A DNA stretch of 64,000 nucleotides from Blastocatellia bacterium (GCA_963765495.1 CAVXWP010000003.1:160001-224000), one strand, 5' to 3'. Counted from the first letter of the stretch, positions 1-57,793 are shown. Made by a program: numbers and translations. The notes: generated from the letters alone by a model not told the origin.

Positions 1-2
1 GA

Positions 3-149
3 GATATTGTTACGATTCGCCTTACGGAAAATAATCCAGAACCGATGTATAGTAAAGAAGTAATCGGTATTCGTAATCTTGCCGATCCAGATGATTACTC
101 TTCTGTCACAGGTATTAGGTTAGGCGGGGGAAGTAGCAACATCATCTGA
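3..149 (+). CDS. 3' end of a gene entering from the left, probably cas3 (partial)
   Basis: Open frame DIVTIRLTE...DDYSSVTGIRLGGGSSNII* ending TGA 147-149. Position upstream of cas4-cas1-cas2 and the Y..TG..NII ending resemble type I-B Cas3 C-termini. Confidence 0.45.
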   Translation, partial: DIVTIRLTENNPEPMYSKEVIGIRNLADPDDYSSVTGIRLGGGSSNII

Positions 150-680: not shown

Positions 681-1202
681 ATGGATGACTCCGAGCAAAG
701 TGTTACGGACGAACTTCCCATCTTCACTGGTACGGAAGTCGGCTATTACTTTATCTGCCATAAAAAGCTCTGGTGGTTTGCGCATGGCATTCAGATGGAA
801 CACGAGCACGACCGTGTTAAACTCGGCAAGCTCGTTCACCAAGAGTCTTACTCGCGCCGACGCAAGGAGATTGATGTTGACGGAAAGATTGTAATGGACT
901 GGCGCGAAGACGGCATTATTCACGAAATCAAACTCACAGACAAAATGGAAGATGCCCATGAGATGCAACTTGTCTACTATCTCTACTATCTCAAGCTTAA
1001 AGGCGTCAAAGACCTGCGCGGGCAAATAGATTATCCGAAGCTACGTGAAACCAAATCGGTAGTTTTAGACGAAACCAATCAACAAAAAATCGAGCAGGCT
1101 CTCATTGACATAAAGCGCATCGTAGAATTGCCGCGTCCGCCTGAAGTGGAGTGGATGAAGATTTGCCGTTCGTGCAGCTATGCGGAATTGTGCTGGGGGT
1201 GA
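681..1202 (+). CDS. cas4: CRISPR-associated exonuclease Cas4
   Basis: TGTEVGYYFICHKKLWW, EIK, QLVYY and C-terminal CRSCSYAELC Fe-S motif. Confidence 0.95.
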   Translation: MDDSEQSVTDELPIFTGTEVGYYFICHKKLWWFAHGIQMEHEHDRVKLGKLVHQESYSRRRKEIDVDGKIVMDWREDGIIHEIKLTDKMEDAHEMQLVYYLYYLKLKGVKDLRGQIDYPKLRETKSVVLDETNQQKIEQALIDIKRIVELPRPPEVEWMKICRSCSYAELCWG

Positions 1203-1240: not shown

Positions 1241-2452
1241 ATGGCACGGCACTATTACCTGACGAGATCGGGCCGTCTCCGGCGCAAAGACAACACTCTT
1301 TGTTTCGAGCCGTCCGGTGAGATTACAGAAAATTCCTGCGATCAGGCCGTTACGTATGAACCGTCTTCGTCCGGCGATGTTGAATACGGCTTACCTGAAA
1401 CGGTAACCGACATGTTCAGCGGATCGGATGAGATGGGGGATTTATCTTTTGAGCCTGAGGCGGGGTCGGACAGTGAAGAGACTGCGCGATTGGAATCAGA
1501 GTTGTCTTTGGAAGAACAGGCCGCTCCGGTCAGAGTGGCTGATAGGCGCGTGATTCCGGTCGAGGACGTAGACGCACTCTGGGTCTTTGGCGAACTTGAT
1601 TTGAACTCGCGGGTGTTGAACTTTCTGGCTCAACACAAGATTCCTGCTCACTTCTTTAATTACTATGGATATTACGCGGGAACTTTTTACCCGCGTGAAT
1701 ACTTGAACGCGGGCTTTGTCCTAGTAAAGCAGGTTCGTCACTATGCTAATAGGCAGTTACGACTGGCTATTGCGCGCGAGTTTATCAATTCGGCTCTGCA
1801 CAATATTTTACGCAATCTGAGATACTACGGCGCGCGAGGGGTGGACCTACAGGCAGAAACAGAAGGCGTACAGGAAGAGGTGTTGCGCCTGGATTCGGTA
1901 AGAGACATAAATGAACTGATGGCCTGCGAAGGGCGTGCGCGGAGTTCCTATTATAAAGGATTTTCAAAGATATTTCGTGAGCGGGTGGAATTTACAAAGC
2001 GAGTGAGGCGTCCACCCGACAACCCCGTCAACACGCTCATCTCGTTTACGAATGGGATGGTTTATGCAGCGGCGCTGACTCAGATTTATCGAACTCAACT
2101 CAATCCGACTATCAGCTTTCTACATGAGCCGGGAGCGCGTCGCTTTTCACTCGCCTTAGACCTGGCCGAAGTATTCAAGCCTATATTGGCAGACAGGTTG
2201 ATATTCAAGCTGGTCAATAATCGGCAGTTGTGTGAACGGGACTTCTCGCAGGATTTGAACTGCTGTTATCTGAAAGATTCAGGCCGGAAAACGATCTTGA
2301 AGGAATGGGACGCGAGATTGCAGACGACGATAGAACACAGGCGGTTAAAGCGCAAAGTGAGTTATGAAAGGCTGATTAGATTAGAGTGTTACAAGCTGGT
2401 CAAGCACTTGACCGATACAGAGCGATATGTAGGATTTCGCGCATGGTGGTGA
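1241..2452 (+). CDS. cas1: CRISPR-associated integrase Cas1 (type I-B-like) with N-terminal acidic insertion
   Basis: GRLRRKDNTL, FFNYYGYYAGTFYPRE, PPDNPVNTLISF, ISFLHEP, LALDLAEVFKP, C-terminal ECYKLVKH...WW. Confidence 0.95.
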   Translation: MARHYYLTRSGRLRRKDNTLCFEPSGEITENSCDQAVTYEPSSSGDVEYGLPETVTDMFSGSDEMGDLSFEPEAGSDSEETARLESELSLEEQAAPVRVADRRVIPVEDVDALWVFGELDLNSRVLNFLAQHKIPAHFFNYYGYYAGTFYPREYLNAGFVLVKQVRHYANRQLRLAIAREFINSALHNILRNLRYYGARGVDLQAETEGVQEEVLRLDSVRDINELMACEGRARSSYYKGFSKIFRERVEFTKRVRRPPDNPVNTLISFTNGMVYAAALTQIYRTQLNPTISFLHEPGARRFSLALDLAEVFKPILADRLIFKLVNNRQLCERDFSQDLNCCYLKDSGRKTILKEWDARLQTTIEHRRLKRKVSYERLIRLECYKLVKHLTDTERYVGFRAWW

Positions 2453-2468: not shown

Positions 2469-2735
2469 ATGTACGTGCTGATAGTTTATGACATAGAGGT
2501 TAAGAGGGTCAGCCGAGTGCACAAGTTTCTGAAGAGGTATCTGAACTGGGTGCAGAACTCTGTTTTTGAGGGAGAGCTAACCGAATCACAGATAGAAAAA
2601 GTTAAAGCGGGACTGTATAGAATACTGATAGAAGATGTAGATTCGGTGTTGATCTATACTGCGCGCGAAGAGCGGTGGTTGAATAAGGAAGTAATGGGAT
2701 GCGAACGCGGCCAAACAAGCAACCTGTTATTTTGA
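2469..2735 (+). CDS. cas2: CRISPR-associated Cas2
   Basis: MYVLIVYDI...YLNWVQNSVFEGELT. Confidence 0.95.
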   Translation: MYVLIVYDIEVKRVSRVHKFLKRYLNWVQNSVFEGELTESQIEKVKAGLYRILIEDVDSVLIYTAREERWLNKEVMGCERGQTSNLLF

Positions 2736-2975
2736 AAGAATTAGCCGTATCGGCCGTCGTCGGGCACCTGTCAAGGGAGGAATTTGGAAAGAAACTTGTG
2801 TGAATGAAAAGGGCATATTCCGATTAAATATTATCTTAAAAGCAGTTAACCCATGTCGTCAGGCATGGTGGGTTTAAGCACTATTGCCGCCCGACGACTT
2901 ACTCACAACAAAAATTGAAAAAATCTAATGCTAAATGATTGATTTAGCTATAACCTTTTTCATAGAATAGCCGGG
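2736..2975 (+). promoter_or_regulatory. CRISPR leader
   Basis: AT-rich non-coding segment between cas2 and the first repeat. Contains GTCGTC(G/A)GGC at 2756 and 2855 and its reverse complement at 2889. Confidence 0.85.
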
Positions 2976-5900
2976 GCTTGAATCGAACCATCGTGGAATT
3001 GAAACATCGATCAATGCGCAATCGGCATGCATAGTCGCAGATGGCTTGAATCGAACCATCGTGGAATTGAAACATGCTGAATCGTCGCACGTTGATCTGC
3101 GATCGTGACAGTGCTTGAATCGAACCATCGTGGAATTGAAACTACGATCTGCGCTAGTACGAGTCATCGCGACGTCACAGCGCTTGAATCGAACCATCGT
3201 GGAATTGAAACAGCTCGTACTGCGACTGTCACCGGTGCATGACGCAGCGCTTGAATCGAACCATCGTGGAATTGAAACATCGATAGTCAGCCGAGCGATC
3301 ATGATGTCGACGATCAGCTTGAATCGAACCATCGTGGAATTGAAACATCAGTAGCACTCGATCAGCTCGATCTGGCGATATTGCGCTTGAATCGAACCAT
3401 CGTGGAATTGAAACTAGTCATGACAGCTGCTCGATGTCAGCGTCGACTGCATCGGCTTGAATCGAACCATCGTGGAATTGAAACGAGCATCTACGCATGA
3501 CGGATAGTCGACTCGCACATGCTTGAATCGAACCATCGTGGAATTGAAACACGATGACCGCGAACGCTTGACAGTCGACGATGCGACGCTTGAATCGAAC
3601 CATCGTGGAATTGAAACGTCATATCGGCAGTCCGCAGCGCATCGGCGAGTCAGTGCTTGAATCGAACCATCGTGGAATTGAAACTGATCTCGAACTGACT
3701 GCCGACAGATCGCATAGCCGCAGCTTGAATCGAACCATCGTGGAATTGAAACCGATATTTCGGTCGCTCATCGCGCATGCAGCCGTATGCTTGAATCGAA
3801 CCATCGTGGAATTGAAACACTGCATCAGCCGCATGCTGCGCAGTCGACTGACGCGCTTGAATCGAACCATCGTGGAATTGAAACTATGACATGCAGCATC
3901 GATGCTGCATCGCGACATGACTGCTTGAATCGAACCATCGTGGAATTGAAACAGCAGTCGACAATGTCGCTGCATAGCGTGACAGCTACGACGCTTGAAT
4001 CGAACCATCGTGGAATTGAAACGCATTGATGCCGCGTACTGATAGTCAGCTGCTGATGACGGCTTGAATCGAACCATCGTGGAATTGAAACATGAATTCG
4101 CACGTGCAGCGAAACGATCAGCGATCGATGCTTGAATCGAACCATCGTGGAATTGAAACAGATCATGGCAGCTGTCGCGGCTAGCATGCAGTGCAGCTTG
4201 AATCGAACCATCGTGGAATTGAAACTGCATATGCAGCTGATCAGCTGCACGGTACAGCGCAGTGCTTGAATCGAACCATCGTGGAATTGAAACTATCGCT
4301 GAAGCGCTCGACGATCTGCGCATGTCAGTGCTTGAATCGAACCATCGTGGAATTGAAACACATGCTATGTCGCGCATGATCCGCATGCAGCATCGATGCT
4401 TGAATCGAACCATCGTGGAATTGAAACTACGCATCGTCGACTGCAATCGGCTCGCATCGATCGGCTTGAATCGAACCATCGTGGAATTGAAACAGTCAGA
4501 CTGCAGCGATATGCAAGTCGCGACAGCGACGCTTGAATCGAACCATCGTGGAATTGAAACCATAGCATTCGCGATGCTCGCTGAACGACTGCAGCTGAGC
4601 TTGAATCGAACCATCGTGGAATTGAAACGCTATGCAAGCCGTCGCGATCGAATCGCGCATGTGCAGCTTGAATCGAACCATCGTGGAATTGAAACAGATG
4701 CCGTCGATCGTGCTCGAAGTCGATCATCTGCACGGCTTGAATCGAACCATCGTGGAATTGAAACATCAGTAATCGATCGTCTGAGTCGACATCGCAGCGC
4801 AGCTTGAATCGAACCATCGTGGAATTGAAACATCACTCAGCATCCAGCACTGCGCGATCACGTGCATGCGCTTGAATCGAACCATCGTGGAATTGAAACA
4901 CGCATGAGCGCTCGCATCGAAATGGCGCAACTCGTGGCTTGAATCGAACCATCGTGGAATTGAAACGCAGTATGCAGCGTACTTGCAGATTCGCTGTCTT
5001 GACGTGCTTGAATCGAACCATCGTGGAATTGAAACAAGTCAATGACCGGCTGATCGCAACGCAGTGCGCGATGCTTGAATCGAACCATCGTGGAATTGAA
5101 ACTATCTAGATCGCGCCTGTAATGCTGAATCATCGCAGTGCTTGAATCGAACCATCGTGGAATTGAAACATGATCTGATCACTGCCGAGTGCGCTCGACG
5201 CATCGCGCTTGAATCGAACCATCGTGGAATTGAAACATCGATCACGCTGACCGTCATGACGCAATCGTGCAGGCTTGAATCGAACCATCGTGGAATTGAA
5301 ACATCAGATACGCGCATACTGCCGATTCGCTATCGAGTCAGCTTGAATCGAACCATCGTGGAATTGAAACTAGATCATTGCTGCACGATATTCGCATGAT
5401 CGGCAGCTGCTTGAATCGAACCATCGTGGAATTGAAACAGCTGCATCGACACGCGCTATGAGCGTCGCCATCGTCAGCTTGAATCGAACCATCGTGGAAT
5501 TGAAACTAGCTATCGCGGTCTCGTGCTCTGCATAGCCATCGTGCAGCTTGAATCGAACCATCGTGGAATTGAAACTTGATACATAGCTCGCTACGATATG
5601 CCGCATCGAGCGATGCTTGAATCGAACCATCGTGGAATTGAAACGATATCATCGACAGCTCGCTATCATGAGATGCTGCAGGCTTGAATCGAACCATCGT
5701 GGAATTGAAACAGTCATCATGAGTCGATGCGGCCGCAGTACGCGTCATGGCTTGAATCGAACCATCGTGGAATTGAAACGATATCTGCGTGCACGATCAG
5801 AGCTCGAGCATTGCAAGGCTTGAATCGAACCATCGTGGAATTGAAACTGCATGCCGTGCATGATCGCCTGCAGATTGCGACGCGTGCTTGAATCGAACCA

Positions 5901-8900
5901 TCGTGGAATTGAAACCACGTACGTAGCGCGGCAGTATCGCCGACTGCCGTCGCAGCTTGAATCGAACCATCGTGGAATTGAAACGCAGTACTGCGAGCGC
6001 ATCGATCGTGCACCGATTGCAGGCTTGAATCGAACCATCGTGGAATTGAAACGATTGAATCACGCTGCCTGCAGTGTCGAGATGCATGCATGCTTGAATC
6101 GAACCATCGTGGAATTGAAACAACTGATGCCATGGCGGCATTGCAGCGATGCGCTAGCAGGCTTGAATCGAACCATCGTGGAATTGAAACGCAGTTGAAT
6201 CGGCAATAGCGATTGCTGTCAGGTCGCAGCTTGAATCGAACCATCGTGGAATTGAAACCATGCACTACGGCATGCGTGTACGGCCGTGCTACTGAGGCTT
6301 GAATCGAACCATCGTGGAATTGAAACAAGCTCAGCTGAGCTCAGTCGAGCGGCTGCATTGCAGTAGCTTGAATCGAACCATCGTGGAATTGAAACACCAT
6401 GTCATCAGTCGTATGAGCTCTCGAGATAGCGAGCTTGAATCGAACCATCGTGGAATTGAAACATGCTCAAGCGACTCGATCGTACTCGAGCATTGCAGAG
6501 CTTGAATCGAACCATCGTGGAATTGAAACGATCTGCACAGCGATCTGGCTATGACGTGCCGATGCGTTGCTTGAATCGAACCATCGTGGAATTGAAACTA
6601 GCATCATGCACGCGATCATGGCTTAGACTGTCATCTGCTTGAATCGAACCATCGTGGAATTGAAACATGAGCATCAGGCTGTCACTGATCATCCTGCAGA
6701 TGCAGGCTTGAATCGAACCATCGTGGAATTGAAACTAGCATCATCGTGGCCGATGTTGACGATGCGTATCAGGCTTGAATCGAACCATCGTGGAATTGAA
6801 ACATCATGACAGCTCATGCCTTGCAGCGTTGCAGTCGCAGTGCTTGAATCGAACCATCGTGGAATTGAAACAACGCATCGAGCTCACTTGCTGCGAGCTC
6901 GCTAGCTCGCTTGAATCGAACCATCGTGGAATTGAAACAGCTATGCAGCTGATCGCTGTAATCGATTGCGGCATGCTGCTTGAATCGAACCATCGTGGAA
7001 TTGAAACGTTAATCCTGCGTCTGCGTATTGCGTCGATGCTGCTCAGGCTTGAATCGAACCATCGTGGAATTGAAACTGAGTCAAGCTGTACTGATCGCGC
7101 AGCGGTCAAGTCGAGCTTGAATCGAACCATCGTGGAATTGAAACCTGGATACATGCTCAGCAGATCGATGTCACGACTGCGGCTTGAATCGAACCATCGT
7201 GGAATTGAAACATCAGCTATGAGGCTTGATCGTAGCGATCAGCGATGCGCGCTTGAATCGAACCATCGTGGAATTGAAACTATAGCTTGTCAGCTGACGC
7301 AGTCGATGTCGGCGCATCGCTTGAATCGAACCATCGTGGAATTGAAACATAGCATATGAGCTCGATATGCATAGCGCTACATGCGATGCTTGAATCGAAC
7401 CATCGTGGAATTGAAACAGGCTTCAGCGATAGCCGCGTGGCGATCTGCAACGTGCTTGAATCGAACCATCGTGGAATTGAAACGCGCATACGTGGTACGA
7501 GATGCTGGCGGCTGTCTCATGCTTGAATCGAACCATCGTGGAATTGAAACTATCGATAGCTATTGCAGATGGCTCGATGCACTTCAGTGCTTGAATCGAA
7601 CCATCGTGGAATTGAAACCATAGTCGGATGACATTGCACGTGTTACGTCACGTGCTTGAATCGAACCATCGTGGAATTGAAACCATGCTACTGCAAGTCA
7701 TTCGGCGAGTCGTTACGTGCTGCTTGAATCGAACCATCGTGGAATTGAAACATGACATCCGACATGTCAACTGCGATAGATCGACGCGGCTTGAATCGAA
7801 CCATCGTGGAATTGAAACCTAGATCAGTAACGCTGATCTGAAGCGCTGACGACGACATGCTTGAATCGAACCATCGTGGAATTGAAACCATAAATCGACG
7901 GCTCAAGAACCTACAGGCGATGCAGTGCTTGAATCGAACCATCGTGGAATTGAAACACGTAATCGAGCAGCTCGTCGTTATTGACTTGCGATCGTGCTTG
8001 AATCGAACCATCGTGGAATTGAAACAAAGCATCGGCAGCGATCATGTGCAGCTCATCGGCAGGCTTGAATCGAACCATCGTGGAATTGAAACGATCGATA
8101 ATCAGCCATGCGCGTCGAAAGCATGCGCAGGCTTGAATCGAACCATCGTGGAATTGAAACCAGTCATAAGTCGAGCTGATCTGCGGTCGAGCTGCATGCT
8201 TGAATCGAACCATCGTGGAATTGAAACTTGCATTGACGATCGCAGAGTCGCAGTCGAGCATGCACGCTTGAATCGAACCATCGTGGAATTGAAACGATGC
8301 AAAGCGCATCGACGCTATGCATCGTGCAGTGCTTGAATCGAACCATCGTGGAATTGAAACATTGCATCTCGACTGCCTGTACGTCGCTGATGCCACGTTG
8401 CTTGAATCGAACCATCGTGGAATTGAAACATCGCATGCAGGTCACGGCTACGGCATGATGCGACTGCGCTTGAATCGAACCATCGTGGAATTGAAACATG
8501 TATTACCGGCTGCATTTGAATCGCTGAGCTTCCGCTTGAATCGAACCATCGTGGAATTGAAACAGCATCGAAGTCGCAGCATTGACCGCGTCGACATCGG
8601 CGCTTGAATCGAACCATCGTGGAATTGAAACTAGATTCGATCAGACGCGTTGTATGCATCTGGCATCACTGCTTGAATCGAACCATCGTGGAATTGAAAC
8701 CATGCATGACGTGCCCGATCGACGTGGTCATAGATTGTGCTTGAATCGAACCATCGTGGAATTGAAACCGATCCAGCGTGATCGCTCTAGCGCGATGGCG
8801 CGGCTTGAATCGAACCATCGTGGAATTGAAACGATGCAGATGCCGTACGCTGATGGCTTCGATGTTCGAGCTTGAATCGAACCATCGTGGAATTGAAACG

Positions 8901-11900
8901 CATGTGATACCGTCAGTGATGCTTCGATATCAACGTGCTTGAATCGAACCATCGTGGAATTGAAACAAGCATCGAATCGATCAGCGCGATGCCGGCTAGT
9001 GCGAAGCTTGAATCGAACCATCGTGGAATTGAAACATAGTCATAGCGCTTGCGATCAGCGATAGCATCGCTTAGCTTGAATCGAACCATCGTGGAATTGA
9101 AACTATGCCTAAGCCGCATCGCATAGTTGCGCAACTGCTAGGCTTGAATCGAACCATCGTGGAATTGAAACGTCAGATATGGATCGCCGGCCGATTACGG
9201 CATGAGCATGCTTGAATCGAACCATCGTGGAATTGAAACCGTAGACAGCCAGTGAATCGTGCTAGCAGTCATTGCGTGCTTGAATCGAACCATCGTGGAA
9301 TTGAAACTACGATCATGACGCAGACTGTAATGACGGTCAACGGTCGCGCTTGAATCGAACCATCGTGGAATTGAAACAGCATCGTAGACGCATCGAGCGC
9401 TAATCGGCTACAGTGCGGCTTGAATCGAACCATCGTGGAATTGAAACATAGATATGACGCGATTCGGCACCTTTACGATCGATGCTTGAATCGAACCATC
9501 GTGGAATTGAAACGTGGATACGTTCGAGCTACGACTGAAGCTTCAGATGCTTGAATCGAACCATCGTGGAATTGAAACAATCTGTCGATGCTTGCAGCCT
9601 TATCGCATAGTAGGCTTGAATCGAACCATCGTGGAATTGAAACGTGGTCTCATCTCGACTGGTTCGACTGCAGGATCAAGGCTTGAATCGAACCATCGTG
9701 GAATTGAAACGCGACGATGCGAACCTGTGTCTGATAGGCGCAGCTTGCTTGAATCGAACCATCGTGGAATTGAAACATGCATCAGATTCGTGGTCTCGGC
9801 ATGTTCAGTCTATGGCTTGAATCGAACCATCGTGGAATTGAAACAACGTCGAACCGGGCTAGAATGTGGCAATGACTCAGAGCTTGAATCGAACCATCGT
9901 GGAATTGAAACATCGATCATGGCAATCTTGTAGCTCGCGACGGTCAGTCTGCTTGAATCGAACCATCGTGGAATTGAAACACATGTATCTGCAGGCTTTG
10001 AAGCTTGCATCTGTACGAGCTTGAATCGAACCATCGTGGAATTGAAACCAATTGCTCGTGAGCCTCGCTATCGTTCGACTGCACAAGGCTTGAATCGAAC
10101 CATCGTGGAATTGAAACTCGGCATACCTTTGATGATGTCGAGCGATCAATGTGCTGGCTTGAATCGAACCATCGTGGAATTGAAACGACATCTGTTAGTG
10201 ATGCTATGACAGTCGATAAACATAGCTTGAATCGAACCATCGTGGAATTGAAACCTGCTCGTGATCCGTCGACCGATGAGCGTCTACAGTGATGCTTGAA
10301 TCGAACCATCGTGGAATTGAAACGACACTTGCGGGCTACTGCTATGACGTGATCAGTCAAGTGCTTGAATCGAACCATCGTGGAATTGAAACATCCGTGA
10401 CAGCGGCTACAGCAATCGACGTCTATGCTTGAATCGAACCATCGTGGAATTGAAACTTTCACTTACCTCGCTACTCAGCACTCAACGGAAGTCGAGCTTG
10501 AATCGAACCATCGTGGAATTGAAACATGCATGCTCGAGCTGCTCGCATGAATGACGTCCGAGTGCTTGAATCGAACCATCGTGGAATTGAAACATGCATT
10601 ACGCGTGCTACTGAGCATCGTCAGGTCAGGAGCTTGAATCGAACCATCGTGGAATTGAAACAGATTCATCGCTGATCACTTGAAACAGCTTGACAGTGGC
10701 GGCTTGAATCGAACCATCGTGGAATTGAAACACGATTTCACCTCACTGATTCGAGCTAAGCGCAGTCAGAGCTTGAATCGAACCATCGTGGAATTGAAAC
10801 GATGATCAGCGCAGCTGTCGCAGACTGTGATGTACATAGCTTGAATCGAACCATCGTGGAATTGAAACCGATGATCAGGCGAGCTTCACATCGCACTAGC
10901 GCATCGGCTTGAATCGAACCATCGTGGAATTGAAACGAGCATCACATGCACAGGTCGCAGATTAAGGCGAAGCTTGAATCGAACCATCGTGGAATTGAAA
11001 CTGATGCATCGACTCATGCTCACTGCTCAGGTTGCGCTTGAATCGAACCATCGTGGAATTGAAACTCGAGAAATATGCTGCAGATTGCAGCACAGGCACT
11101 CAGCTTGAATCGAACCATCGTGGAATTGAAACTGTTGCCAGTCGGCAGGGATCTAGCAGCTGAGGTGAGTGCTTGAATCGAACCATCGTGGAATTGAAAC
11201 AATATGCATGCCGCACGATCGTGCCTACGCAAGCAGGAGCTTGAATCGAACCATCGTGGAATTGAAACTGAGCGATCAATACCGACAAGCGGTTAGACTG
11301 ACGTCGCTTGAATCGAACCATCGTGGAATTGAAACTAATCAAGCTTATTTCACAGTGGACAGGCGAATCATGTGCTTGAATCGAACCATCGTGGAATTGA
11401 AACTGCATGCTTCTGCCAGTAGCTCGACTATCTCAGTCACGGCTTGAATCGAACCATCGTGGAATTGAAACGAGTTTGAAAGCGAGCTCGACTGATAGAC
11501 GAACTCGAAGCTTGAATCGAACCATCGTGGAATTGAAACTCGTAGCACAGCGCCCACTCCATCGTGCCAGATGCGAGCTTGAATCGAACCATCGTGGAAT
11601 TGAAACACAGCAACCGCATCAGTCCAGTTGACTGCATCGTCGCTTGAATCGAACCATCGTGGAATTGAAACCATCACCCTTCGCCTGCGTGGCGAGCCGA
11701 GTTGAGGGCTTGAATCGAACCATCGTGGAATTGAAACCAGATCGGCATAGTGCGCTAGCTTCGACATGCATGAGCTTGAATCGAACCATCGTGGAATTGA
11801 AACCGATGGTCATCAGACGCAGCTGATGCGACAAGAACGATGGCTTGAATCGAACCATCGTGGAATTGAAACCGGTATAAGTTCTCGAAGAACACGCCGA

Positions 11901-12339
11901 AGATGGATGGCTTGAATCGAACCATCGTGGAATTGAAACAATGACATCCCCTTGCTGTAGGGAACGCCCAAATCGCTTGAATCGAACCATCGTGGAATTG
12001 AAACGTGTTTGACCTGGCCAGTCGAGCGATATTCGGATTCAAGCTTGAATCGAACCATCGTGGAATTGAAACGCCACTTTGACCTTGCGCGCTGAATTCT
12101 GGCAGCCGGGCTTGAATCGAACCATCGTGGAATTGAAACACGAGCAGATAGCCGCAAGCCTACGCGACAGCTTGGAGCTTGAATCGAACCATCGTGGAAT
12201 TGAAACGATTATCGGCGCTTACTTCAAGCGTCTTTTTCCCGTGCTTGAATCGAACCATCGTGGAATTGAAACATGTTTGCCAGAGGCAGGGATTCTGGCA
12301 GTGGGTGAGGCTTGAATCGAACCATCGTGGAATTGAAAC
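2976..12339 (+). CRISPR. CRISPR array, 139 repeats by manual count; 30-bp repeat GCTTGAATCGAACCATCGTGGAATTGAAAC, spacers ~34-40 bp
   Basis: Invariant repeat at ~67.6-bp period. The 3' ATTGAAAC handle and the leader position indicate + strand transcription. Confidence 0.99.
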
Positions 12340-12357
12340 CAAATTATTAGCGCGCCG

Positions 12358-13563
12358 CTGAAGGATGGACACATTTGCTAATTGAACGAGTAGCAACAAG
12401 TTATAAACCTGTGGAAGATTTGTTTTGTGAAAAACCATCAATCTTCTGCTACTCGTTTGCGTGATTATATCACTGCGCTGCTGCCTTCGGCGCACGGACA
12501 TCAACTTAAAGCGATCTGTGATTTCGTCGCTGCGATCATTGAAAATCAAACTGCCAATCAGGCTGAGTTGGCTCGCTGTTTCGGCTCTCAGGAGGCTGCT
12601 GTTAAACGCCTATCTCGCTTGATTCATAACAAGCGCATCCATCCTGATGATCTTGCTGAGGGCGTTTTGCTTCAAGCCTTGTCTCAATTGCCTAGACGAG
12701 GCAAAATCCGTCTGGCAATTGATTGGACTATTGAAGGCGACCATCACCTGCTCGTTGTTTCGCTTGTGACTGGCTCTCGCGCTGTGCCCGTTTATTGGAG
12801 AGCTTACTCTCAGAGCCTGCTTAAGGGCCGTATGCGCCGCTATGAGGTTGCTGTAATCAAGCGCGTCGTCTCCGGCTTTAACAATCGCATTGGTCGCCGT
12901 CGCCTGATTGTCACAGCAGATCGTTGGTTTGCGGATGTCGCTTTAGCGCAACTGTTTGAAGATATGAAGCTTAGCTACATTATCCGAGTCAAAAACAGCA
13001 CGAAGATTTACTATGGTGGTCAATGGCAAAATCTCAAGCGAATGAGATTTTCAGGCAATGCGCGAGGTCGCAACTTTGGGCGCTGCAATTACAGAGAGGG
13101 TTCTCAGCACAAGTTGTATGTGAGTATGAGCCGAGCCAAAGACAAGGAAGGAAAGTGGGAGATATGGTATCTGATAAGCAACAACCGCTACAGTGCAAAG
13201 CAAGCAGCAAATGAATACAGCAGACGCTTCGGGTGCGAGCAGGGATTTAGAGATGTGAAATGGGAGAAGGGATTTTCTCGAGCGAGAATAGAGGATGTGA
13301 AAGCGTGGTCGAGGATGTTCGCACTGTTTGCGATAGCGTTGCTGGTAGTAGTAGTGCTAGGAATGAAGTTGTTAGCTAGAGGGAGAAAAGGAGCCAGGGA
13401 GTTGCTGAGGAGAGTAGCGAGGCGAAAAAAAGGAAGATGGGAATTGAGCATCGTGAGTGCAATGGTGAGCCTGCTGAGAATGGATAAAAGCTTGTTTGAG
13501 CATCTCACTCCTCAAGCGAAACTCAACCTCGAGGCTGCTTTATAAAATGTGTCCATCCTTCAG
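12358..13563 (+). mobile_element. IS4-family insertion sequence (~1.2 kb)
   Basis: Perfect terminal inverted repeats CTGAAGGATGGACACATTT (12358-12376) and AAATGTGTCCATCCTTCAG (13545-13563) around a single transposase; no target-site duplication. Confidence 0.9.
12427..13545 (+). CDS. DDE transposase (IS4-like)
   Basis: LAIDWT, IVTADRWF, and YSRRFGCEQGFRDVK (YREK-type motif). Confidence 0.9.
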   Translation: MKNHQSSATRLRDYITALLPSAHGHQLKAICDFVAAIIENQTANQAELARCFGSQEAAVKRLSRLIHNKRIHPDDLAEGVLLQALSQLPRRGKIRLAIDWTIEGDHHLLVVSLVTGSRAVPVYWRAYSQSLLKGRMRRYEVAVIKRVVSGFNNRIGRRRLIVTADRWFADVALAQLFEDMKLSYIIRVKNSTKIYYGGQWQNLKRMRFSGNARGRNFGRCNYREGSQHKLYVSMSRAKDKEGKWEIWYLISNNRYSAKQAANEYSRRFGCEQGFRDVKWEKGFSRARIEDVKAWSRMFALFAIALLVVVVLGMKLLARGRKGARELLRRVARRKKGRWELSIVSAMVSLLRMDKSLFEHLTPQAKLNLEAAL

Positions 13564-13895
13564 CTTGGAGGCAATAGACGGCTCGCGCTACCTATAAGGG
13601 AAAGGGGGGAAATGATGGGAGATGAATCCTCGGTGCAAGAAAACGCATCACGTCTCACCGGATACAGATGAAATCAGGCTGTAATGTAGTATAGGGAAAG
13701 GGAGGGCTTAATACAGCCCTAAGATGCTGATACGGAGCCATCCACATTTCTTCCTGATGCCATAGCAAATAGCGCTATTATTCAAGTCTGAGTAGTGATC
13801 GGCATAACAATTCAACGGATAGAATATGACAAAGGCGTTGACCTGCAAACAGTGGCATTGTGTAAGGGGGCAAGACGCCAGTTAGGAGGCAAAGA

Positions 13896-15283
13896 ATGTT
13901 CAAGGTGGTTCAAAGATGGAATGAAGTTATTAAAGTTCAGACTGGAAAAAGTAGAAAGCCGTCTTTCGGCTACGACTTTACAATAGAAGGAAAGCGGCAC
14001 CGTAATTCCGGCTTCCCAACAAAGGGCGGGGCCGAGGCAGCGGTCGGTAAGATTAAAGCGGCTATCCGATTTGGCGAGTCAAGCCAGATAACGTCTTTTG
14101 TACCTACCATATCGCAGTTGGCTGCGGCCTGTGTGAACCGTCAACGGCTGCGCGTGAGTCGAAAACGTGTGGCGCTCACAAAGCGTGTGACTAGACGTTT
14201 CTTAGAGTTCCTTCAAAACCCCAGCAAGCAGGGCAAGAGCATCTAAATTTCAATAATGCCGGGGATTTAGGAGTCATAGTGAAACTTTATCCTCCATATA
14301 GAGCGAAATCGTAAGGCTTAAGACTTGAAGGAGCGTTAAATCATCAGGAATCTATGATCGAAGTAGCCCAAACTTGAGATGCTTCGTTTTATAAATCAGC
14401 GATTATATGGAGTTTTTAGATGCTCTTGCCCTGCCCCAGCAAGCCGATAACAAAGATAACAAGTCATGATATGATAAGATTTCAACAGTATCTTTTAGAT
14501 GCTCCGTGGCTGGACGGGCGGACGCTACATCCGCACACGGTAAACGATCAAACGAGAGTTATTAGATCAATGTTTTTAGCCGCAGAAGTTTTATTTCCGC
14601 ATGTTCAGTTTAACCCGCCTCGCATCACTCCCCTGCCTGTACTACATCACGGGCGCGAGCGTGTATATCAAGACGATGAAATCATTAAAATGATTAATGC
14701 GCTACGCAACATGCCAAGCGCACGGCTACCCGACTACAAACGACAGGACGCGCATGATTTATTCGTACTCGGATGGCAAACCGCCGCCCGTATAGGTGAA
14801 CTACTCGCCTTGAAGGTGCAGGATTGCTCACTTACAGGCAAGCGGCCTTGTATCTATATCCGCACGTCAAAGACGAAACGTGCACGTACGATACTGCTTA
14901 CCTCTATAGCCGAAGACGTTATCCGCAGACGCATAGATGCGGCCACAAACGAAAAGCTGTTTCCACACGCCGGGCGGCCACAGGTTTATGGCGGCAATCT
15001 TTGTAAGATATATAAACGTGCCGCAGAGGTTGCAGGCGTAGAATGGGGCCGTGATTCACAATCAGGCGTCGTGTTTCATACCTTACGTCATACGGCGATT
15101 ACTCGTATGGTGCGGGAAGGCCACCCATTGCAAGTTATAGGCAAGTGGACGGGTCACGCAGCGCAGACTATGATTCTCAGGTATTCCCATGCATCCGACG
15201 AGGATATGGAAGCGATAGCAAGTCGCTTTGAAAAACTCGGCACTAAATTGACACCTGCTTTTTTGTCGTCTGCAAATGCTTGA
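13896..15283 (+). pseudogene. Phage-type tyrosine integrase interrupted by a MITE
   Basis: N-terminal arm-binding-like part (YDFTIEGKRHRNSGFPTK) plus catalytic part (AARIGE, SKT, HTLRH, TGH, LRYSH). Removing 14229-14443 restores one ~390-aa frame (...LQNPSK|PITKITS...). Confidence 0.9.
14229..14433. mobile_element. 205-bp non-autonomous MITE, ISAs1-like ends
   Basis: Perfect 19-bp TIRs CAGGGCAAGAGCATCTAAA / TTTAGATGCTCTTGCCCTG, flanked by 10-bp direct repeat CCCCAGCAAG (14219-14228, 14434-14443). Confidence 0.92.
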
Positions 15284-20000: not shown

Positions 20001-23000
20001 ATGACACACGAGCAAATTACGATAGACGGCAACGAAGCCGCCGCAATTGTGGCTTACAAGACAAATGAGGTAATCGCCATCTACCCTATCACCCCTTCTT
20101 CACCGATGGGTGAGTTGTCGGATGCGTGGGCCACGCTCAAAGAGAGAAACCTCTGGGGCATGTCGCCTGTTGTGCGCGAAATGCAATCGGAAGGCGGAGC
20201 CGCCGGAGTCGCGCACGGTACGCTCCAGACGGGCGCGCTTACGACCACCTTTACCGCGAGCCAGGGGTTGCTCCTGATGATCCCAAACATGTTCAAGATA
20301 GCGGGCGAGCTTACGAGCACGGTATTTCACATCGCGGCTCGCACGGTCGCCACGCACGCGCTGTCAATTTTCGGCGATCATAGCGATGTGATGGCCACGC
20401 GCTCTGCGGGCTGGGCGATGTTGTTTGCCGGCTCTGTTCAGGAGGTGATGGATTTTGCGCTGATAGCGCAGGCTTCCACATTGCGTGCGAGAGTCCCTTT
20501 CCTTCACATCTTTGACGGTTTCCGCACCTCGCACGAAGTGATGAAGATCGAAAAACTCAGCGACCAGATGATCGCCGCGATGATCGATTCTGAACTGGTC
20601 AGAGAGCATCGCGGTCGCGCCCTTTCGCCGGATCATCCCGTGATTCGGGGGACCGCTCAGAACCCGGATGTATTCTTTCAATCCCGCGAGCGAGCCAATA
20701 TTTATTATCAGCAGACCCCCGACATCGTAGAGGCCGCGATGGATAAATTCGCCTCTCTTACGGGCCGCCGCTATAGCCTGTTTGATTATATCGGCGCTGC
20801 GGATGCCGAGCGCGTGATAGTGATGATGGGATCGGGCGCAGAGACGGCGGAGGAGACGGTCAGGTATCTGGCGGAGCGGGGCGAGCCAGTAGGCTTGCTC
20901 AAGGTAAGACTTTACCGCCCGTTTTCAAACAAGCATCTGCTGGCCGCTTTGCCGAAGACCGCGCGCGCCATAGCCGTGCTCGACAGAACCAAAGAGCCGG
21001 GAAGCGCAGGCGAGCCGCTTTATCAGGATGTCGTCACAGCCATTGCCGAAAGCTTCGCAGATGGCGGCAATTCATTCGAGCGGGTGCCTCGCGTGATCGG
21101 AGGCCGCTACGGGCTTGCCTCAAAAGAATTCACCCCGGCGATGGTCAAGGCCGTATTTGACGAACTCGCTTCAGACAATCCGAAGAATCATTTCACCGTA
21201 GGCATCAACGACGATGTAACCTTCACAAGCATCGACTACGACGCAGACTTTGACACCGAGCGCGACGATGAAGTGCGGGCCGTATTCTGGGGACTTGGTT
21301 CGGACGGCACGGTGGGCGCAAACAAAAACTCCGTGAAGATCATCGGCGAAGAGACCTCAAATTACGCGCAGGGGTATTTCGTTTACGACTCAAAGAAAGC
21401 GGGCGCGGTAACGGTCTCGCATCTGAGGTTTGGCCCGCGCCCGATCCGAAGCAGTTATCTCATCCGGCGGGCAAACTTTGTCGCCGTCCATCAATTCAAT
21501 TTCCTCAACCGATACGACGTATTGGAGACGGCCGAGGAGGGCGCGATCTTTTTGCTGAATGCGCCTTACACTAAAGATGAAGTGTGGAATTATCTGCCCC
21601 GCTCGACGCAGGAACAGATCATCGGAAAGAAGCTGAAATTTTATACGATCAACGCAAATGAAGTCGCCAGGGCGGCGGGTCTTGGCGGGCGCATCAACAC
21701 CATCATGCAGACCTGCTTTTTCGCCATAAGCGGCGTCCTGCCGCGTGAAGAGGCCGTGACAAAGATCAAAGAATCGATCAAGAAGACTTATAGCAAACGA
21801 GGCGAAACGGTTCTCAAGCAGAATTACAGGGGGGTGGACGCGGCGCTCTCGCACCTTGAAGAAGTGATCGTGCCCGACAGCGTTACATCGGATTTCGACA
21901 GGGCGGCGACAGTCCCGCTCGATGCGCCCGAATTCGTTCGCAATATAACGGCTGCGCTTATGTCGGGCAAAGGCGACGCTTTGCCCGTCAGCGCCTTTCC
22001 CGCCGACGGAACCTATCCGACAGGCACCGCCGCGTGGGAGAAACGATCCATCGCGCAAGAGGTTCCCGTCTGGGAGACCGACCTTTGCATCCAATGCGGG
22101 AAGTGCGTGATGGTCTGCCCGCACTCGACCATCCGCGCCAAGGTCTTTGATGGCGACGGGGCAGAGAATGCGCCGGACGGATTCAAGTACATGCCCGCAA
22201 AATGGCGCGAGCTTACCGGCAAGCAGTACACGATTCAGGTAGCGGTAGAGGATTGCACCGGCTGCCGATTATGCGTAGAGATTTGCCCGGCGAAGGATAA
22301 GAGCAACGTCTCGCGCAAGGCTCTCAACATGCATCCGCAAGCGCCACTCGTCGAGCGCGAGCGCGACAACTGGCGGTACTTCCTCGATCTTGCCGAACCC
22401 GCTCAGAAACAGGCTCTGCATTTCAACACGGTAAAGAACGTGCAGTTGCTGGAGCCGCTGTTTGAATTTTCAGGAGCCTGCGCCGGTTGCGGCGAGACGC
22501 CTTACATAAGACTTGTGACGCAACTGTTTGGCGACCGCGCCATAATTGCAAACGCCACGGGTTGCTCAAGCATTTATGGCGGCAATCTTCCCACCACTCC
22601 CTACACGGTCAACGGTGAGGGGCGAGGCCCGGCCTGGAGCAATTCGCTATTTGAAGACAACGCCGAATTCGGCCTCGGGATGCGGATGGCTGTCGATCAA
22701 CGAACTGCCTATGCGAGGCAGTTGATCGAGCGGTTGCACCCGGAAATAGGGGACGCGCTTGCCGAGAGTCTGCTCTCTACGGATCAATCAACCGAAGCGG
22801 GGATAAACGCGCTTCGCCAGTGTGTAAACGCGCTCAAAGCGAAACTGCGCGGCAACACTGACCCGCAGGCGCGAGACTTACTGAGCGTAGCCGACTCGCT
22901 TGTCAAAAAGAGCGTATGGATAGTGGGCGGTGACGGCTGGGCCTACGATATAGGTTACGGCGGGCTCGATCACGTGCTTGCAAGCGGGCTGAATGTAAAC

Positions 23001-23561
23001 GTGCTCGTGCTCGACACAGAGGTCTATTCAAACACCGGAGGGCAGGCGTCGAAGGCCACTCCGCTCGGGGCTGTGGCAAAGTTTGCCGCGGGCGGCAAGC
23101 TCACGCCAAAAAAAGACCTGGGATTGATGGCTATTCGGTACGGCAATGTCTATATCGCGCAGGTGGCGATGGGGGCAAACGATCAGCAGACTCTCAAAGC
23201 CATCCTCGAAGCCGAATCGCACGACGGACCTTCGCTCATCATCGCCTATAGCCATTGCATAGCTCACGGAATCGACATGTCGAAAGGGATGACTCAACAG
23301 AAGCTTGCGGTAGAAAGCGGTTACTGGCCGCTATATCGCTTTGACCCGCGGCTTGCTTCGACCGACAGGAGCGCGTTTCAACTCGATTCGAAAGCACCGA
23401 CCATCCCGCTCAAAAACTATATCTACAACGAAGGGCGCTATCGCATACTTTTGCAAAGCGACCCGGCCTCGGCAAGCGTTCTGCTGGCTCTCGCCGAGCA
23501 AGCGGTGCAAGAGCGATGGAAGCATTACACGCGACTCGCGGAGATTTATAAGGGCGAGTAA
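20001..23561 (+). CDS. nifJ: Pyruvate:ferredoxin/flavodoxin oxidoreductase
   Basis: YPITPSS, MQSEGGAAG, two 4Fe-4S CxxCxxCxxxCP motifs, GACAGCGE, GGDGWAYDIG. Confidence 0.97.
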   Translation: MTHEQITIDGNEAAAIVAYKTNEVIAIYPITPSSPMGELSDAWATLKERNLWGMSPVVREMQSEGGAAGVAHGTLQTGALTTTFTASQGLLLMIPNMFKIAGELTSTVFHIAARTVATHALSIFGDHSDVMATRSAGWAMLFAGSVQEVMDFALIAQASTLRARVPFLHIFDGFRTSHEVMKIEKLSDQMIAAMIDSELVREHRGRALSPDHPVIRGTAQNPDVFFQSRERANIYYQQTPDIVEAAMDKFASLTGRRYSLFDYIGAADAERVIVMMGSGAETAEETVRYLAERGEPVGLLKVRLYRPFSNKHLLAALPKTARAIAVLDRTKEPGSAGEPLYQDVVTAIAESFADGGNSFERVPRVIGGRYGLASKEFTPAMVKAVFDELASDNPKNHFTVGINDDVTFTSIDYDADFDTERDDEVRAVFWGLGSDGTVGANKNSVKIIGEETSNYAQGYFVYDSKKAGAVTVSHLRFGPRPIRSSYLIRRANFVAVHQFNFLNRYDVLETAEEGAIFLLNAPYTKDEVWNYLPRSTQEQIIGKKLKFYTINANEVARAAGLGGRINTIMQTCFFAISGVLPREEAVTKIKESIKKTYSKRGETVLKQNYRGVDAALSHLEEVIVPDSVTSDFDRAATVPLDAPEFVRNITAALMSGKGDALPVSAFPADGTYPTGTAAWEKRSIAQEVPVWETDLCIQCGKCVMVCPHSTIRAKVFDGDGAENAPDGFKYMPAKWRELTGKQYTIQVAVEDCTGCRLCVEICPAKDKSNVSRKALNMHPQAPLVERERDNWRYFLDLAEPAQKQALHFNTVKNVQLLEPLFEFSGACAGCGETPYIRLVTQLFGDRAIIANATGCSSIYGGNLPTTPYTVNGEGRGPAWSNSLFEDNAEFGLGMRMAVDQRTAYARQLIERLHPEIGDALAESLLSTDQSTEAGINALRQCVNALKAKLRGNTDPQARDLLSVADSLVKKSVWIVGGDGWAYDIGYGGLDHVLASGLNVNVLVLDTEVYSNTGGQASKATPLGAVAKFAAGGKLTPKKDLGLMAIRYGNVYIAQVAMGANDQQTLKAILEAESHDGPSLIIAYSHCIAHGIDMSKGMTQQKLAVESGYWPLYRFDPRLASTDRSAFQLDSKAPTIPLKNYIYNEGRYRILLQSDPASASVLLALAEQAVQERWKHYTRLAEIYKGE

Positions 23562-28513: not shown

Positions 28514-29749
28514 TCACTTCGTCTGATTTATTTGGATCGCGCTCAGATGACTTTCCGGTATTGGTTTTTGACCGTTTCGGATGTGGCATTTCGTACACTC
28601 GAAAGCCGCGTTCGCTTTCTTTTGCGCGACTTCAAAATTAAGCGCGCCTTCAAGAGTCGCTTCAATGTGACAGCCCGTTCCCGCCCCTCCACAGGATTTC
28701 ACCTCTACCCGTGTGCTCTTATCGAGAGTATTGAGCGCCGAGGCATTATGACAGGCGGCGCAATCGAGATCGGCGTGAGGCAGCCATTCGTGCCTGAATT
28801 TTGCCGTCTCGCGCCTGCTCCACAATTTCAAGGCGGTTCGATCCTGCACTTTCATCATCGCCGCAAGTTTCGGGTCAAAGTCTCCGTGCGCGCTCGTCAA
28901 GTCGGTCTGTTTATCCGGCGGCAAGAGATTATGGCACACATTGCAATCGCCCGGGCCGGGTGTCAGACCGCTATCTTCGGAGTGACAGGTAAAACAGATC
29001 GTGTGGCCCGACGGCGGCGTCTTGAATGTTCCTTTCTTTAACCAGAATGCGTCTTCTGCCAGGTCTTTCGGGGGCGCAGTCACATACTCATCATCAGAAT
29101 CCCCCTGCGGCATGTAGGTCTTATGGCAAACCGCGCAGCTTGCCGACTGGCTCTCTTCATAGCCCGGTCTTGCCTTGCGAACAAATGACGCGAGGATGAA
29201 GGGGCTCGATAATCGCGTCGGGCGATCAACCGGGTTCTGCCCGACAATTTCAATATGTTTATCGTGAGGAAAGCTGATGCCGTATTCCGAGGTAAAGCTC
29301 TCTGCCGTTTTCGCTTGATCGAATATCTCTTCCGGGTTTGGGAAAGGATGACGCGAGCTATCGCGCGGCGACGGATTCGTGTGACAGATAAAACAGATGG
29401 CAGGCCGAGCGCCGGTAAAAAACTGCTTGCGATGGCACGGGAGGCAGGAAGCGTGTTCCGGATAATCGGTAATGTCGGGGAAGGCATCTTCCGCCTTGCG
29501 GACCTCTTTCCAGTTTGCGGAAGGAAACTTGTGGCACGCGCTGCACGCCTGTTTCCGGTGATCCGGCACGCGATGAGTGAAGCTGGAATAGTCTGCGCGC
29601 TGCTCTGGATTGCTCGATGGCGCTTTGCGTTTTTGTTTCTTTGACCTCGTTTGAGGGTCCGCGTCGGTCTTTGCAGACGGGCGCGCACTCACCCCCAGAA
29701 AGACGGTGAGCGACAGGATTATTATCAGCTTCGTGATTCGATGATTCAT
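28514..29749 (-). CDS. Exported multiheme c-type cytochrome (8 CxxCH plus one CX6CH)
   Basis: Signal peptide; CSACH, CLPCH, CFICH, CAVCH, CFTCH, CNVCH, CAACH, CTKCH, and CGGAGTGCH. Confidence 0.9.
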   Translation of the reverse strand: MNHRITKLIIILSLTVFLGVSARPSAKTDADPQTRSKKQKRKAPSSNPEQRADYSSFTHRVPDHRKQACSACHKFPSANWKEVRKAEDAFPDITDYPEHASCLPCHRKQFFTGARPAICFICHTNPSPRDSSRHPFPNPEEIFDQAKTAESFTSEYGISFPHDKHIEIVGQNPVDRPTRLSSPFILASFVRKARPGYEESQSASCAVCHKTYMPQGDSDDEYVTAPPKDLAEDAFWLKKGTFKTPPSGHTICFTCHSEDSGLTPGPGDCNVCHNLLPPDKQTDLTSAHGDFDPKLAAMMKVQDRTALKLWSRRETAKFRHEWLPHADLDCAACHNASALNTLDKSTRVEVKSCGGAGTGCHIEATLEGALNFEVAQKKANAAFECTKCHIRNGQKPIPESHLSAIQINQTK

Positions 29750-30007
29750 CTGCCTCTGATCCGATTGCCGTCATTTGTCTATTGTAATCAAGTCTTATGC
29801 CATCTCTCTCGATTTTGCAACGATTGCCGAGAGGGGCGCGATTTTGAGGCTGATTGAGCGGCAGAGGCGGTTTCGCAACTCTAAAGGGATGCTCGCATGT
29901 GGAAACTCACCCATTGATTTGCGTAAAAGCTCGCATATCACCCGCCCGCCAAAACGAATTGCCCGCTTATTCTTTGAAAAACAGGCTGCTCAAGTTTAGA
30001 GTTGAAA

Positions 30008-30023
30008 TGGAACGGTCGTTGCT
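30008..30023 (+). promoter_or_regulatory. sigma54 promoter of the cytochrome c operon
   Basis: TGGAACGGTCGTTGCT (GG-N10-GC). Confidence 0.7.
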
Positions 30024-30061
30024 CTTGAAATAGATTTGAAAGTCCAGTAAGAGGTAAGGAT

Positions 30062-30379
30062 ATGAAAAAGATAAAACTCCTGATCGCCACTATAGTTCTC
30101 TCGATGACAGCGATCACAGGGTTTGGCCTGACGGCTCCGAAAACGAGCGCGACCCGTGATGATTTTGATGCCGCGACATTTTTCAAGGCCAAGTGCGCGA
30201 TGTGTCACGGCCAGAAGGCCGAGAAGAAATTCGACGCGTCGCTGCCGGATGAGGAACTGGTGCAGATAGTTCTAAAGGGCAAGGAAGGAACGCCGAAAAT
30301 GCCGGAATACGGATCGAAGGGCATTGACGCGGAGAAGGCAGCGGCGCTTATAGCTCATATGAAATCGTTGAAGCAATAA
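30062..30379 (+). CDS. Monoheme class I cytochrome c
   Basis: Signal peptide, CAMCHG, KMP axial Met. Confidence 0.9.
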   Translation: MKKIKLLIATIVLSMTAITGFGLTAPKTSATRDDFDAATFFKAKCAMCHGQKAEKKFDASLPDEELVQIVLKGKEGTPKMPEYGSKGIDAEKAAALIAHMKSLKQ

Positions 30380-30495
30380 TCTCTTTCCCTTGCCGGCGAT
30401 CCGGGTTGTTTTTCACCTATTTCAGACGCGGGGTCTGAAGCGCGAAGTGTTGCGCTTCGGACTCCGCGATCATCAACCGGCGGAGCAAGCCTGTC

Positions 30496-54682: not shown

Positions 54683-55115
54683 TTCGAATGCCAGAAAAGA
54701 TCCCATCCCTTCCTTTCGCTTCACGGTGCGATTTGATGATTTGCCGCCCGGCGGGTTCAGCGATTGCTCGGGCTTGCAGATGGAGACCGAGGTGCAGGAC
54801 TTTCATGAAGGCGGGCTCAATACGCATACGTGGAAGTTTGTAACGCGCACAAAACAGGCGAATCTGACGCTCAAGCGGGGAATAGTCAACAAGTCGCTGT
54901 GGGACTGGTATCAGGAACTGGTACAGGGAAAGATGCGATTTCGCAATGCCACGATCATCGTCCACGACCCGTCGGGGGCCGAAGATGTGCTCGAATTTCA
55001 GATCAATCAGGCCTTTCCTATCAAATGGGTGGGACCGGAATTGAGCGCGGCTCAAAACAATATCGCCGTAGAGATGGTTGAGTTCGCTCATCAGGGGCTT
55101 GAACGGCTCAAATGA
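54675..55115 (+). CDS. Tail tube protein 2 (gp19-like)
   Basis: DP...FRF, EGG.N, NLTLKRG, FPIKWVGP. Confidence 0.92.
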   Translation: MADSNARKDPIPSFRFTVRFDDLPPGGFSDCSGLQMETEVQDFHEGGLNTHTWKFVTRTKQANLTLKRGIVNKSLWDWYQELVQGKMRFRNATIIVHDPSGAEDVLEFQINQAFPIKWVGPELSAAQNNIAVEMVEFAHQGLERLK

Positions 55116-55145
55116 AATCGGCTCAACCGGAGATGACAAAAGGAT

Positions 55146-55343
55146 ATGCCGGTGTTTGTAGAAGAGATGACAAGCGAAGTCGCGGTGGCCGAAGGTGAAT
55201 TGCCTCTCAGCCCGTCGCAGGTCGAAAAACTCGTCGAACTGGTCTTGAAAAGACTGGCCGAAAAACAGCAGGACGACAAACGCACGCGCGATGCGACCCG
55301 GCTCCGCAGGGGCGCGTCCGAGCCGTTCGAGCCGGGTTATTGA
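55146..55343 (+). CDS. Small eCIS protein (Afp6-like position)
   Basis: 65 aa, AAGGA RBS, lies between tube 2 and the LysM gene. Confidence 0.6.
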   Translation: MPVFVEEMTSEVAVAEGELPLSPSQVEKLVELVLKRLAEKQQDDKRTRDATRLRRGASEPFEPGY

Positions 55344-55352
55344 GGACACCCT

Positions 55353-57750: not shown

Positions 57751-57793
57751 TGGTTGACATCAACTGATGGTTGACACAACCGAAGGAGGCGAC

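Follow-up and report, generated by a model that had tools for sequence, protein, structure and literature searches.

Known type I-B loci of the CRISPR-Cas class share with the locus described here their gene content and gene order, a 30-nt repeat that ends in ATTGAAAC, and spacers of ~37 nt. In the natural populations treated in the part of Weinberger et al. 2012 (PMC3330103) that deals with acid-mine-drainage reconstructions, arrays are diverse at the leader end and clonal at the trailer end. A third point of reference is the way in which long reads are polished. In the portion of the ABruijn description (10.1101/048413) that covers this step, the alignment is cut at solid landmarks into segments of ~35 nt. 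Of all single edits (insertion, deletion or substitution), the one that best raises Pr(Segments|Consensus) is then made, and this is repeated to convergence, as in Quiver; the lengths of homonucleotide runs are set in a separate step. The locus in question lies in a 64,000-nt stretch of a Blastocatellia bacterium assembly (GCA_963765495.1; G000:C3:160001-224000). This whole stretch is called the window, and coordinates are window positions unless stated otherwise. Its type I-B array contains 138 spacers, of which the first 128 have a highly anomalous composition. With a probability of about 0.87, judged from the assembled sequence and from simulation, spacers 1-128 are a median-string consensus of mutually unrelated real spacers from a heterogeneous array. 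Most of them probably correspond to no real spacer, and the anomalous composition is most likely neither genuine to the DNA of the organism nor a new kind of immune memory.

The array is built on a 29-nt repeat core that is present in 139 exact copies, with no more at up to five substitutions on either strand. A G precedes the core in 138/138 cases; thus, the full repeat measures 30 nt, and the array extends from 2976 to 12339. All 139 copies are confined to this one array, with no other copy genome-wide. When the trailing G is assigned to the repeat, the spacers are 34-40 nt long, with an average of 37.8 nt. The spacers depart from the rest of the genome in how seldom a base is followed by an identical base. 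The fraction of such identical neighbours is 0.072 for spacers 1-95 and 0.117 for spacers 96-128, rising to 0.218 for spacers 129-138, compared with 0.253 in the rest of the window and 0.249-0.263 across the 17 contigs. Spacers 1-128 together contain 392 identical pairs out of 4698 (binomial p = 3e-199 against 0.255), and their base runs comprise 4066 singles, 344 doubles, and 24 triples, with none longer than three bases. Individual spacers with an identical fraction of 0.11 or less number 82/95, 12/33, and 2/10 in the same three zones.

Palindromic 4-mers make up 0.128 of the 4-mers in the spacers, as against 0.061 in random 36-40-mers from the genome, so the spacers are indeed palindrome-rich, as the original prediction had described them. 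The more basic property is an enrichment of 4-mers with four different bases, which reach 0.289 in the spacers versus 0.078 in the random 36-40-mers, a nearly fourfold excess. The enriched dinucleotides (AT, GC, CA, CG, TG, and TC) are mostly ones that are already favoured genome-wide. A comparison of position-specific base use at the spacer ends with that in relatives gave nothing interpretable.

The anomaly weakens along the array. Spacer index and identical fraction are correlated (Spearman 0.59, p = 2e-14), and the fractions of successive ten-spacer blocks are 0.050, 0.053, 0.061, 0.061, 0.096, 0.073, and 0.072 in blocks 1-7 and 0.095, 0.104, 0.123, 0.121, 0.101, 0.140, and 0.243 in blocks 8-14, the last of which contains eight spacers. 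In spacers 129-138 the 4-mers with four different bases fall to 0.101; two of these ten, spacers 130 and 131, are still consensus-like. The original prediction had reported perfect repeats throughout and had counted 3/37 identical pairs in spacer 1, 0/38 in spacer 3, and 12/34 in the spacer at 11940-11974; all 139 repeats are identical, and the counts are correct with the trailing G assigned to the repeat. It had also seen a grading into normal DNA at the trailer and had described ~125 spacers ending at 11640. The gradient is real, but it is more gradual than had been described, and the odd zone ends where it was placed, but the array itself runs on to 12339 and a total of 138 spacers.

Other genomes offer a direct comparison. 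Arrays with near-identical repeats (1-4 base differences) are present in 6/52 other genomes of the same family and have up to 264 repeats. In 345 spacers from three relatives whose repeats differ by 1-4 bases, the identical fraction is 0.262 and 4-mers with four different bases amount to 0.076; none of the 345 has an identical fraction of 0.11 or less. These values bear on the alternative that the spacers are real, having come from a donor of bizarre composition, from template-free synthesis, or from scrambling after acquisition, possibly by way of an unusual Cas1. The Cas1b of this locus does carry an acidic, low-complexity insertion of ~70 residues (roughly 27-100) after the conserved N-terminal strand, which lends this alternative some appeal, as do the 139/139 perfect repeats, since they indicate that the region is not generally noisy. 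However, the Cas1 of one relative (G005) has the same architecture, including the insertion, with 76% identity over all 403 residues; the insertion is thus a lineage trait. The array that adjoins the G005 gene has normal spacers (identical fraction 0.252; 18 spacers sampled). The Cas1b also scores 431 bits against a Cas1b cut-off of 304.1. An atypical Cas1 was consequently rejected as the cause, and the original prediction's alternative of real spacers beside such a protein is not supported.

A second array, of type I-E, is present in the same genome (Table 1). Its system is complete, with Cas1e (383.9 bits), Cas2e, and the full Cascade gene set, and its Cas1e is unrelated to Cas1b. The type I-E spacers are nevertheless depleted in the same way, with 122/1081 identical pairs (0.113) and 4-mers with four different bases at 0.187. 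Their lengths are irregular (30-36 nt, with repeat periods of 59-65). The type I-E Cas1-Cas2 complex measures spacers with a fixed-length ruler, which lengths of 30-36 nt do not fit. Since the same odd composition arises with two unrelated adaptation modules and is absent in relatives, the production of the sequence is probably at fault, and the anomaly points to a property of this assembly rather than of this CRISPR system. By a simple repeat scan, the 7.3-Mb genome contains only two true arrays, the type I-B array on contig C3 and the type I-E array on contig C2. Kilobase-scale enrichment of 4-mers with four different bases is found in the C3 array only; at other places, the threshold is reached in 25 isolated windows, each of 120-195 bp. 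No type I-E array that could serve as a control was found in the family, in which 2/52 other genomes have single repeat-like matches with one spacer each. Two further features run counter to real spacers: the 4-mer spectrum is that of a consensus of this genome's composition (Spearman 0.86, see below), and a smooth positional gradient has no basis in acquisition biology. Taken as genuine sequence, the spacers would be very improbable at best.

Homopolymer avoidance and a balanced G+C content are common rules of oligonucleotide design, and so the spacers could also be imagined as designed synthetic DNA, such as homopolymer-free barcodes or data-storage oligonucleotides, recorded into the array. 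Such an origin is extremely improbable. The genome is a 7.3-Mb one of environmental type whose type I-B and type I-E systems are both native and both have affected arrays; the graded transition is unlike design; 368 of the 4434 base runs are still longer than one base; and the dinucleotide preferences mirror those of the host genome.

The composition of a consensus of unrelated sequences was simulated with unrelated 36-40-mers from this genome, flanked by repeats and passed through several consensus procedures. In the main simulation, with 30 inputs and 120 replicates, the summed edit distance was minimised greedily, one edit at a time. The resulting strings have an identical fraction of 0.073 (observed 0.072), palindromic 4-mers at 0.128 (observed 0.128), and 4-mers with four different bases at 0.264 (observed 0.289), and 8 of the 15 top 4-mers are in common. 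The 4-mer spectrum of the observed spacers correlates with that of the simulated consensus at Spearman 0.86 and with that of the raw genome inputs at 0.29. Uniform random inputs gave a result similar to that of genome inputs. Depletion was seen under 5/5 cost sets, with identical fractions of 0.043-0.085. When an unmatched consensus base cost 7 rather than 10, the length was 36.4 nt, the identical fraction 0.049, and the fraction of 4-mers with four different bases 0.286. Together with three other independent lines, namely the depleted type I-E array, the relatives' 0/345, and the normal spacers beside the G005 Cas1, this match between a likelihood-type simulation and the observed composition supports the leading idea of the original prediction, namely that the spacers are consensus averages.

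These averages probably formed as follows. The cells or strains in the sequenced population would differ in their spacers over most of the array and would have only the oldest, trailer-end spacers in common. A long-read assembler would have placed all reads on one backbone, with the identical repeats acting as firm anchors, or landmarks. Each spacer interval would then be one segment, polished separately from read segments that are mutually unrelated. Given such input, a polisher that seeks the best summed alignment likelihood, and for which insertions and deletions (indels) are cheap, would return a "median string" that is the sequence of no real spacer. This string would maximise chance matches to all of the inputs and would thus be locally as varied as possible, with few identical neighbours, many 4-mers with four different bases, and an exaggeration of the favoured dinucleotides (AT, CG, GC, TC, CA, and TG). 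Presumably, the optimiser drifts there because a locally varied string gives unrelated inputs the most opportunities for gapped matches. A true spacer would survive where at least roughly 35-40% of the reads in the stack carry it, which would produce the gradient to normal DNA at the trailer. In the simulation, shares of the commonest spacer of 0/10/20/30/40/50% yielded identical fractions of 0.078/0.099/0.141/0.196/0.242/0.265, and the spacer was recovered exactly in 23/30 trials at a 40% share and in 30/30 at 50%. With 2/3/5/10/30 equal lineages the fraction was 0.25/0.19/0.17/0.12/0.08. The last eight to ten spacers (129-138) are, by their composition, probably real and carried by a large share of the population.

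Several results weigh against this explanation. Unit-cost median strings are ~5 nt too short (33.2 versus 37.8 nt), and the match in length required an asymmetric cost that was picked after the data had been seen. Draft-based column-plurality voting keeps the draft read, at 0.21-0.24, in 4/5 scoring schemes, and it reaches 0.101 solely with subsequence-like scoring. Column plurality after MAFFT alignment gives 0.266, and the heaviest path of our own partial-order alignment (POA) gives 0.195-0.21, with six iterations going no deeper. Normal-looking spacers at the trailer also have no protospacer match. Within the type I-E array there is no clear polarity; the five trailer-side spacers are at 0.143, the middle at 0.100, and the five leader-side spacers at 0.144, a profile for which register shifts between two anchors account at least as well as acquisition at the leader end does. 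Finally, the explanation would call for a likelihood-type polisher and for reads that differ in their spacers, and the record names neither the assembler nor the polisher. An indirect sign of long reads is that the assembly, in 17 contigs, resolves inside contigs both the 9.4-kb array and an insertion sequence (IS) with a 99.75% identical copy. Column voting, MAFFT plurality, and POA consensus were set aside as models, as they do not reproduce the full effect (POA does so in part). Since voting fails and POA succeeds only partially, the signature implies a polisher that seeks an optimum and tolerates indels.

The type I-E profile, worst in the middle, is what slippage between two anchors predicts, and it speaks for an artefact that involves no real diversity. 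In this alternative, the sample is near-clonal, and out-of-register stacking on the 68-bp period, or a failure of the polisher in a poorly covered region, has averaged different spacers of one and the same array. An assembly that has another gross, artefact-like feature (the 497-nt poly(A) run in contig C9) and that comes from a pipeline the record does not name is compatible with such an event. Yet if reads had slipped between two unique anchors, neither end of an array should suffer, and in the type I-B array degradation is greatest (0.050) at the end that adjoins the unique flank of cas2 and the leader, with normal values (0.243) at the far end only. Moreover, from clonal input with a 12% read error the true spacer was recovered in 6/6 trials; thus, noise alone is not the cause, and with clonal reads the true spacer forms a stable optimum. 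Any spacer with a share of at least 40% likewise tends to survive, as the recovery counts above indicate. An artefact of near-clonal reads is therefore unlikely, and a consensus over reads that really differ in their spacers remains the preferred reading.

If spacers 1-128 are such a consensus, heterogeneity of the array within the population is implied. How deep it goes is a separate matter, and the "extreme clonal diversification" of the original prediction would have to be read from composition. Under the simulated share thresholds, which are a property of the model and not of the real polisher, the leader-side values would need a commonest spacer below ~10% of the stacked reads. Taken at face value, the thresholds would allow no spacer more than ~10% of the stack in the two thirds of the array nearest the leader and would give the most frequent one ~10-20% from roughly spacer 91 to spacer 130, with a plurality spacer only in the last eight to ten positions. 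However, a stack counts distinct sequences per column rather than clones. Reads that lie inside the array and do not match the backbone may sit in any register, multiplying the apparent diversity, so the same stack would result if reads from a moderate number of haplotypes were placed on the repeats in arbitrary register. Deep immune diversity is thus a tentative proposal, with somewhat less than an even chance of being right. It would comprise ~128/138 unshared positions (9 kb), no haplotype above roughly 10-20%, only the oldest 8-10 spacers in common, ten or more co-existing lineages, and a parallel, weaker diversification of the type I-E array. If it is true, per-position spacer diversity in public long-read assemblies could be gauged, with no need for reads, from how often identical neighbours occur in a collapsed array.

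Database searches add little to the choice between these explanations. Blastn against a phage database gave no match for the trailer spacers, nor for spacers 1-117; because both odd and normal spacers are blank, the result is not discriminating. A plasmid database gave two matches only, both at the level of the repeat (72-74%). The exact 30-nt repeat has no match in the metagenome contig and genome contig collections, and these yielded no further, independent copy of the array of this population. Against the repeat, the Rfam model CRISPR-DR2 scores 27.8 bits, under its gathering score of 37.

The genome as a whole (7.30 Mb, 17 contigs, 97.9% complete) has other unusual stretches that lie outside the window. 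At G000:C9:32828-33324 there are 497 consecutive A residues, inside a 910-kb contig and with ordinary flanks; this run is probably another assembly artefact. A purine-rich, low-complexity stretch at G000:C2:165751-166301 includes six A runs of 13-18 bases. The cas3 gene of the type I-E system is apparently split at L023:6074-8900 (G000:C2:73874-76700). A 641-residue open reading frame (ORF) covers the first 606 of 878 Cas3 model positions and overlaps a 356-residue ORF in another frame, so that either a frameshift error or a pseudogene could be present.

Around the array, the gene content is that of an ordinary type I-B CRISPR-Cas system (Table 1). On the strand of the array, the operon runs in the order Cmx6-like Cas6, Cas6, a 579-residue gene product, Cas7/Csh2, Cas5, Cas3, Cas4, Cas1, and Cas2. 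Cas7/Csh2 is recognized at 203.6 bits (cut-off 171.55) and Cas6 at 121.8 bits. Cas5b scores 70.6 bits, under its curated cut-off of 97, and a Cas5 domain is present. The 579-residue product, in the position of Cas8b, has no NCBIfam match. The cas3 gene is an 803-residue ORF at L019:11738-14149, where coordinate 14149 of L019 is position 149 of the window, with a Cas3 core helicase (166 bits) and an HD domain (59 bits). Two Cas6-type genes head the operon upstream of the window, at L019:6848-7519 and L019:7509-8264 (G000:C3:152848-154264). The first, which precedes cas6, matches the type I-MYXAN Cas6/Cmx6 model at 174 bits, and the second matches the general Cas6 model at 122 bits.

Table 1. 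Features of the type I-B locus and its surroundings, with the second array of the genome
Feature	Position	Strand	Description
cas3, 3' end	1-149	+	gene start upstream of the window, at G000:C3:157738
cas4	681-1202	+	Pfam Cas_Cas4 175.5 bits; NCBIfam cas4 70.8 bits (cut-off 65)
cas1 (Cas1b)	1241-2452	+	403 residues; NCBIfam TIGR03641 cas1_HMARI 431 bits (cut-off 304.1)
cas2	2469-2735	+	Pfam CRISPR_Cas2 81.8 bits; NCBIfam cas2 52.8 bits
Presumed leader	2736-2975	+	A+T-rich, spacer-free, 240 bp, between cas2 and the first repeat
CRISPR array	2976-12339	+	139 identical 30-nt repeats, 138 spacers, 9.4 kb
Spacers 1-128	3006-11641	+	consensus-like composition
Spacers 129-138	11672-12309	+	mostly ordinary composition
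DDE transposase of insertion sequence	12427-13545	+	Pfam DDE_Tnp_1 46 bits; directly after the last repeat
Second array, type I-E	G000:C2:65679-67808 (outside the window)		35 repeats, 34 spacers

The array lies 3' of the cas operon, with which it shares its strand, and its repeat ends in ATTGAAAC, which places the leader on the left. The A+T-rich region after cas2 would then function as the leader, and the probable orientation of the array makes spacer 1 the newest and spacer 138 the oldest. At the other end, the IS occupies 12341-13900 and abuts the last repeat. A 1206-bp copy, 99.75% identical, is present at C1:178045-179250, and more distant copies (75-87%) are found in C5, C9, and C2. Insertion of this element may have cut the trailer of the array.

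Elsewhere in the window, a cluster resembling a contractile tail is present on the + strand at 52940-63212. Its genes are one for a sheath at 52940-54682, a baseplate J-like one at 58567-60531, and a Tail_P2_I-like one at 60540-63212, and the cluster could encode either the tail of a prophage or a contractile injection system. At 28514-32109 there are two genes for multihaem cytochromes c, with Cytochrome_C7, MtrC/MtrF-like, and NapC/NirT-like domains, and a pyruvate:ferredoxin oxidoreductase gene (20001-23561) is found near them.

The interest of the odd spacers as biology is low; their use is practical, as a quality flag. This genome is the sole representative of its species in the reference collection, and it would contribute ~128 false type I-B spacers, to which most of the 34 type I-E spacers should probably be added. 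Spacer catalogues and spacer-based prediction of virus-host pairs would accept such sequences as real, and they can never match a target. Any assembly can be screened easily for three signs in the spacers of its arrays: a fraction of identical neighbours below ~0.12, a share of 4-mers with four different bases above ~0.2, and no runs longer than three bases. A match to this screen also flags a population with a heterogeneous array.

How the locus compares with known systems depends on the system chosen. ABruijn/Flye, with its "necklaces", and Quiver use a greedy likelihood search between landmarks ~35 nt apart, as far as the polishing step is described in the portion cited above, and a simulation of this class gives the observed composition. 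These methods assume that the segments are noisy copies of one sequence, whereas here the segments would be unrelated. Full-text literature searches, and CRISPR passages in PMC9426551, PMC11529989, PMC8813620, and PMC7540712, yielded no account of such an artefact in CRISPR arrays. The natural populations covered by the cited part of PMC3330103 show one-way addition and clonality at the trailer end, which match the polarity seen here, with the leader end the most degraded. In the example given there, all but the four newest positions are clonal, whereas here ~128/138 appear to have been averaged, which at face value would be unusually deep diversity. Compared with known type I-B loci, this one has no biological difference; what would set it apart is that, along most of the array, the assembled spacers would not be genuine sequences.

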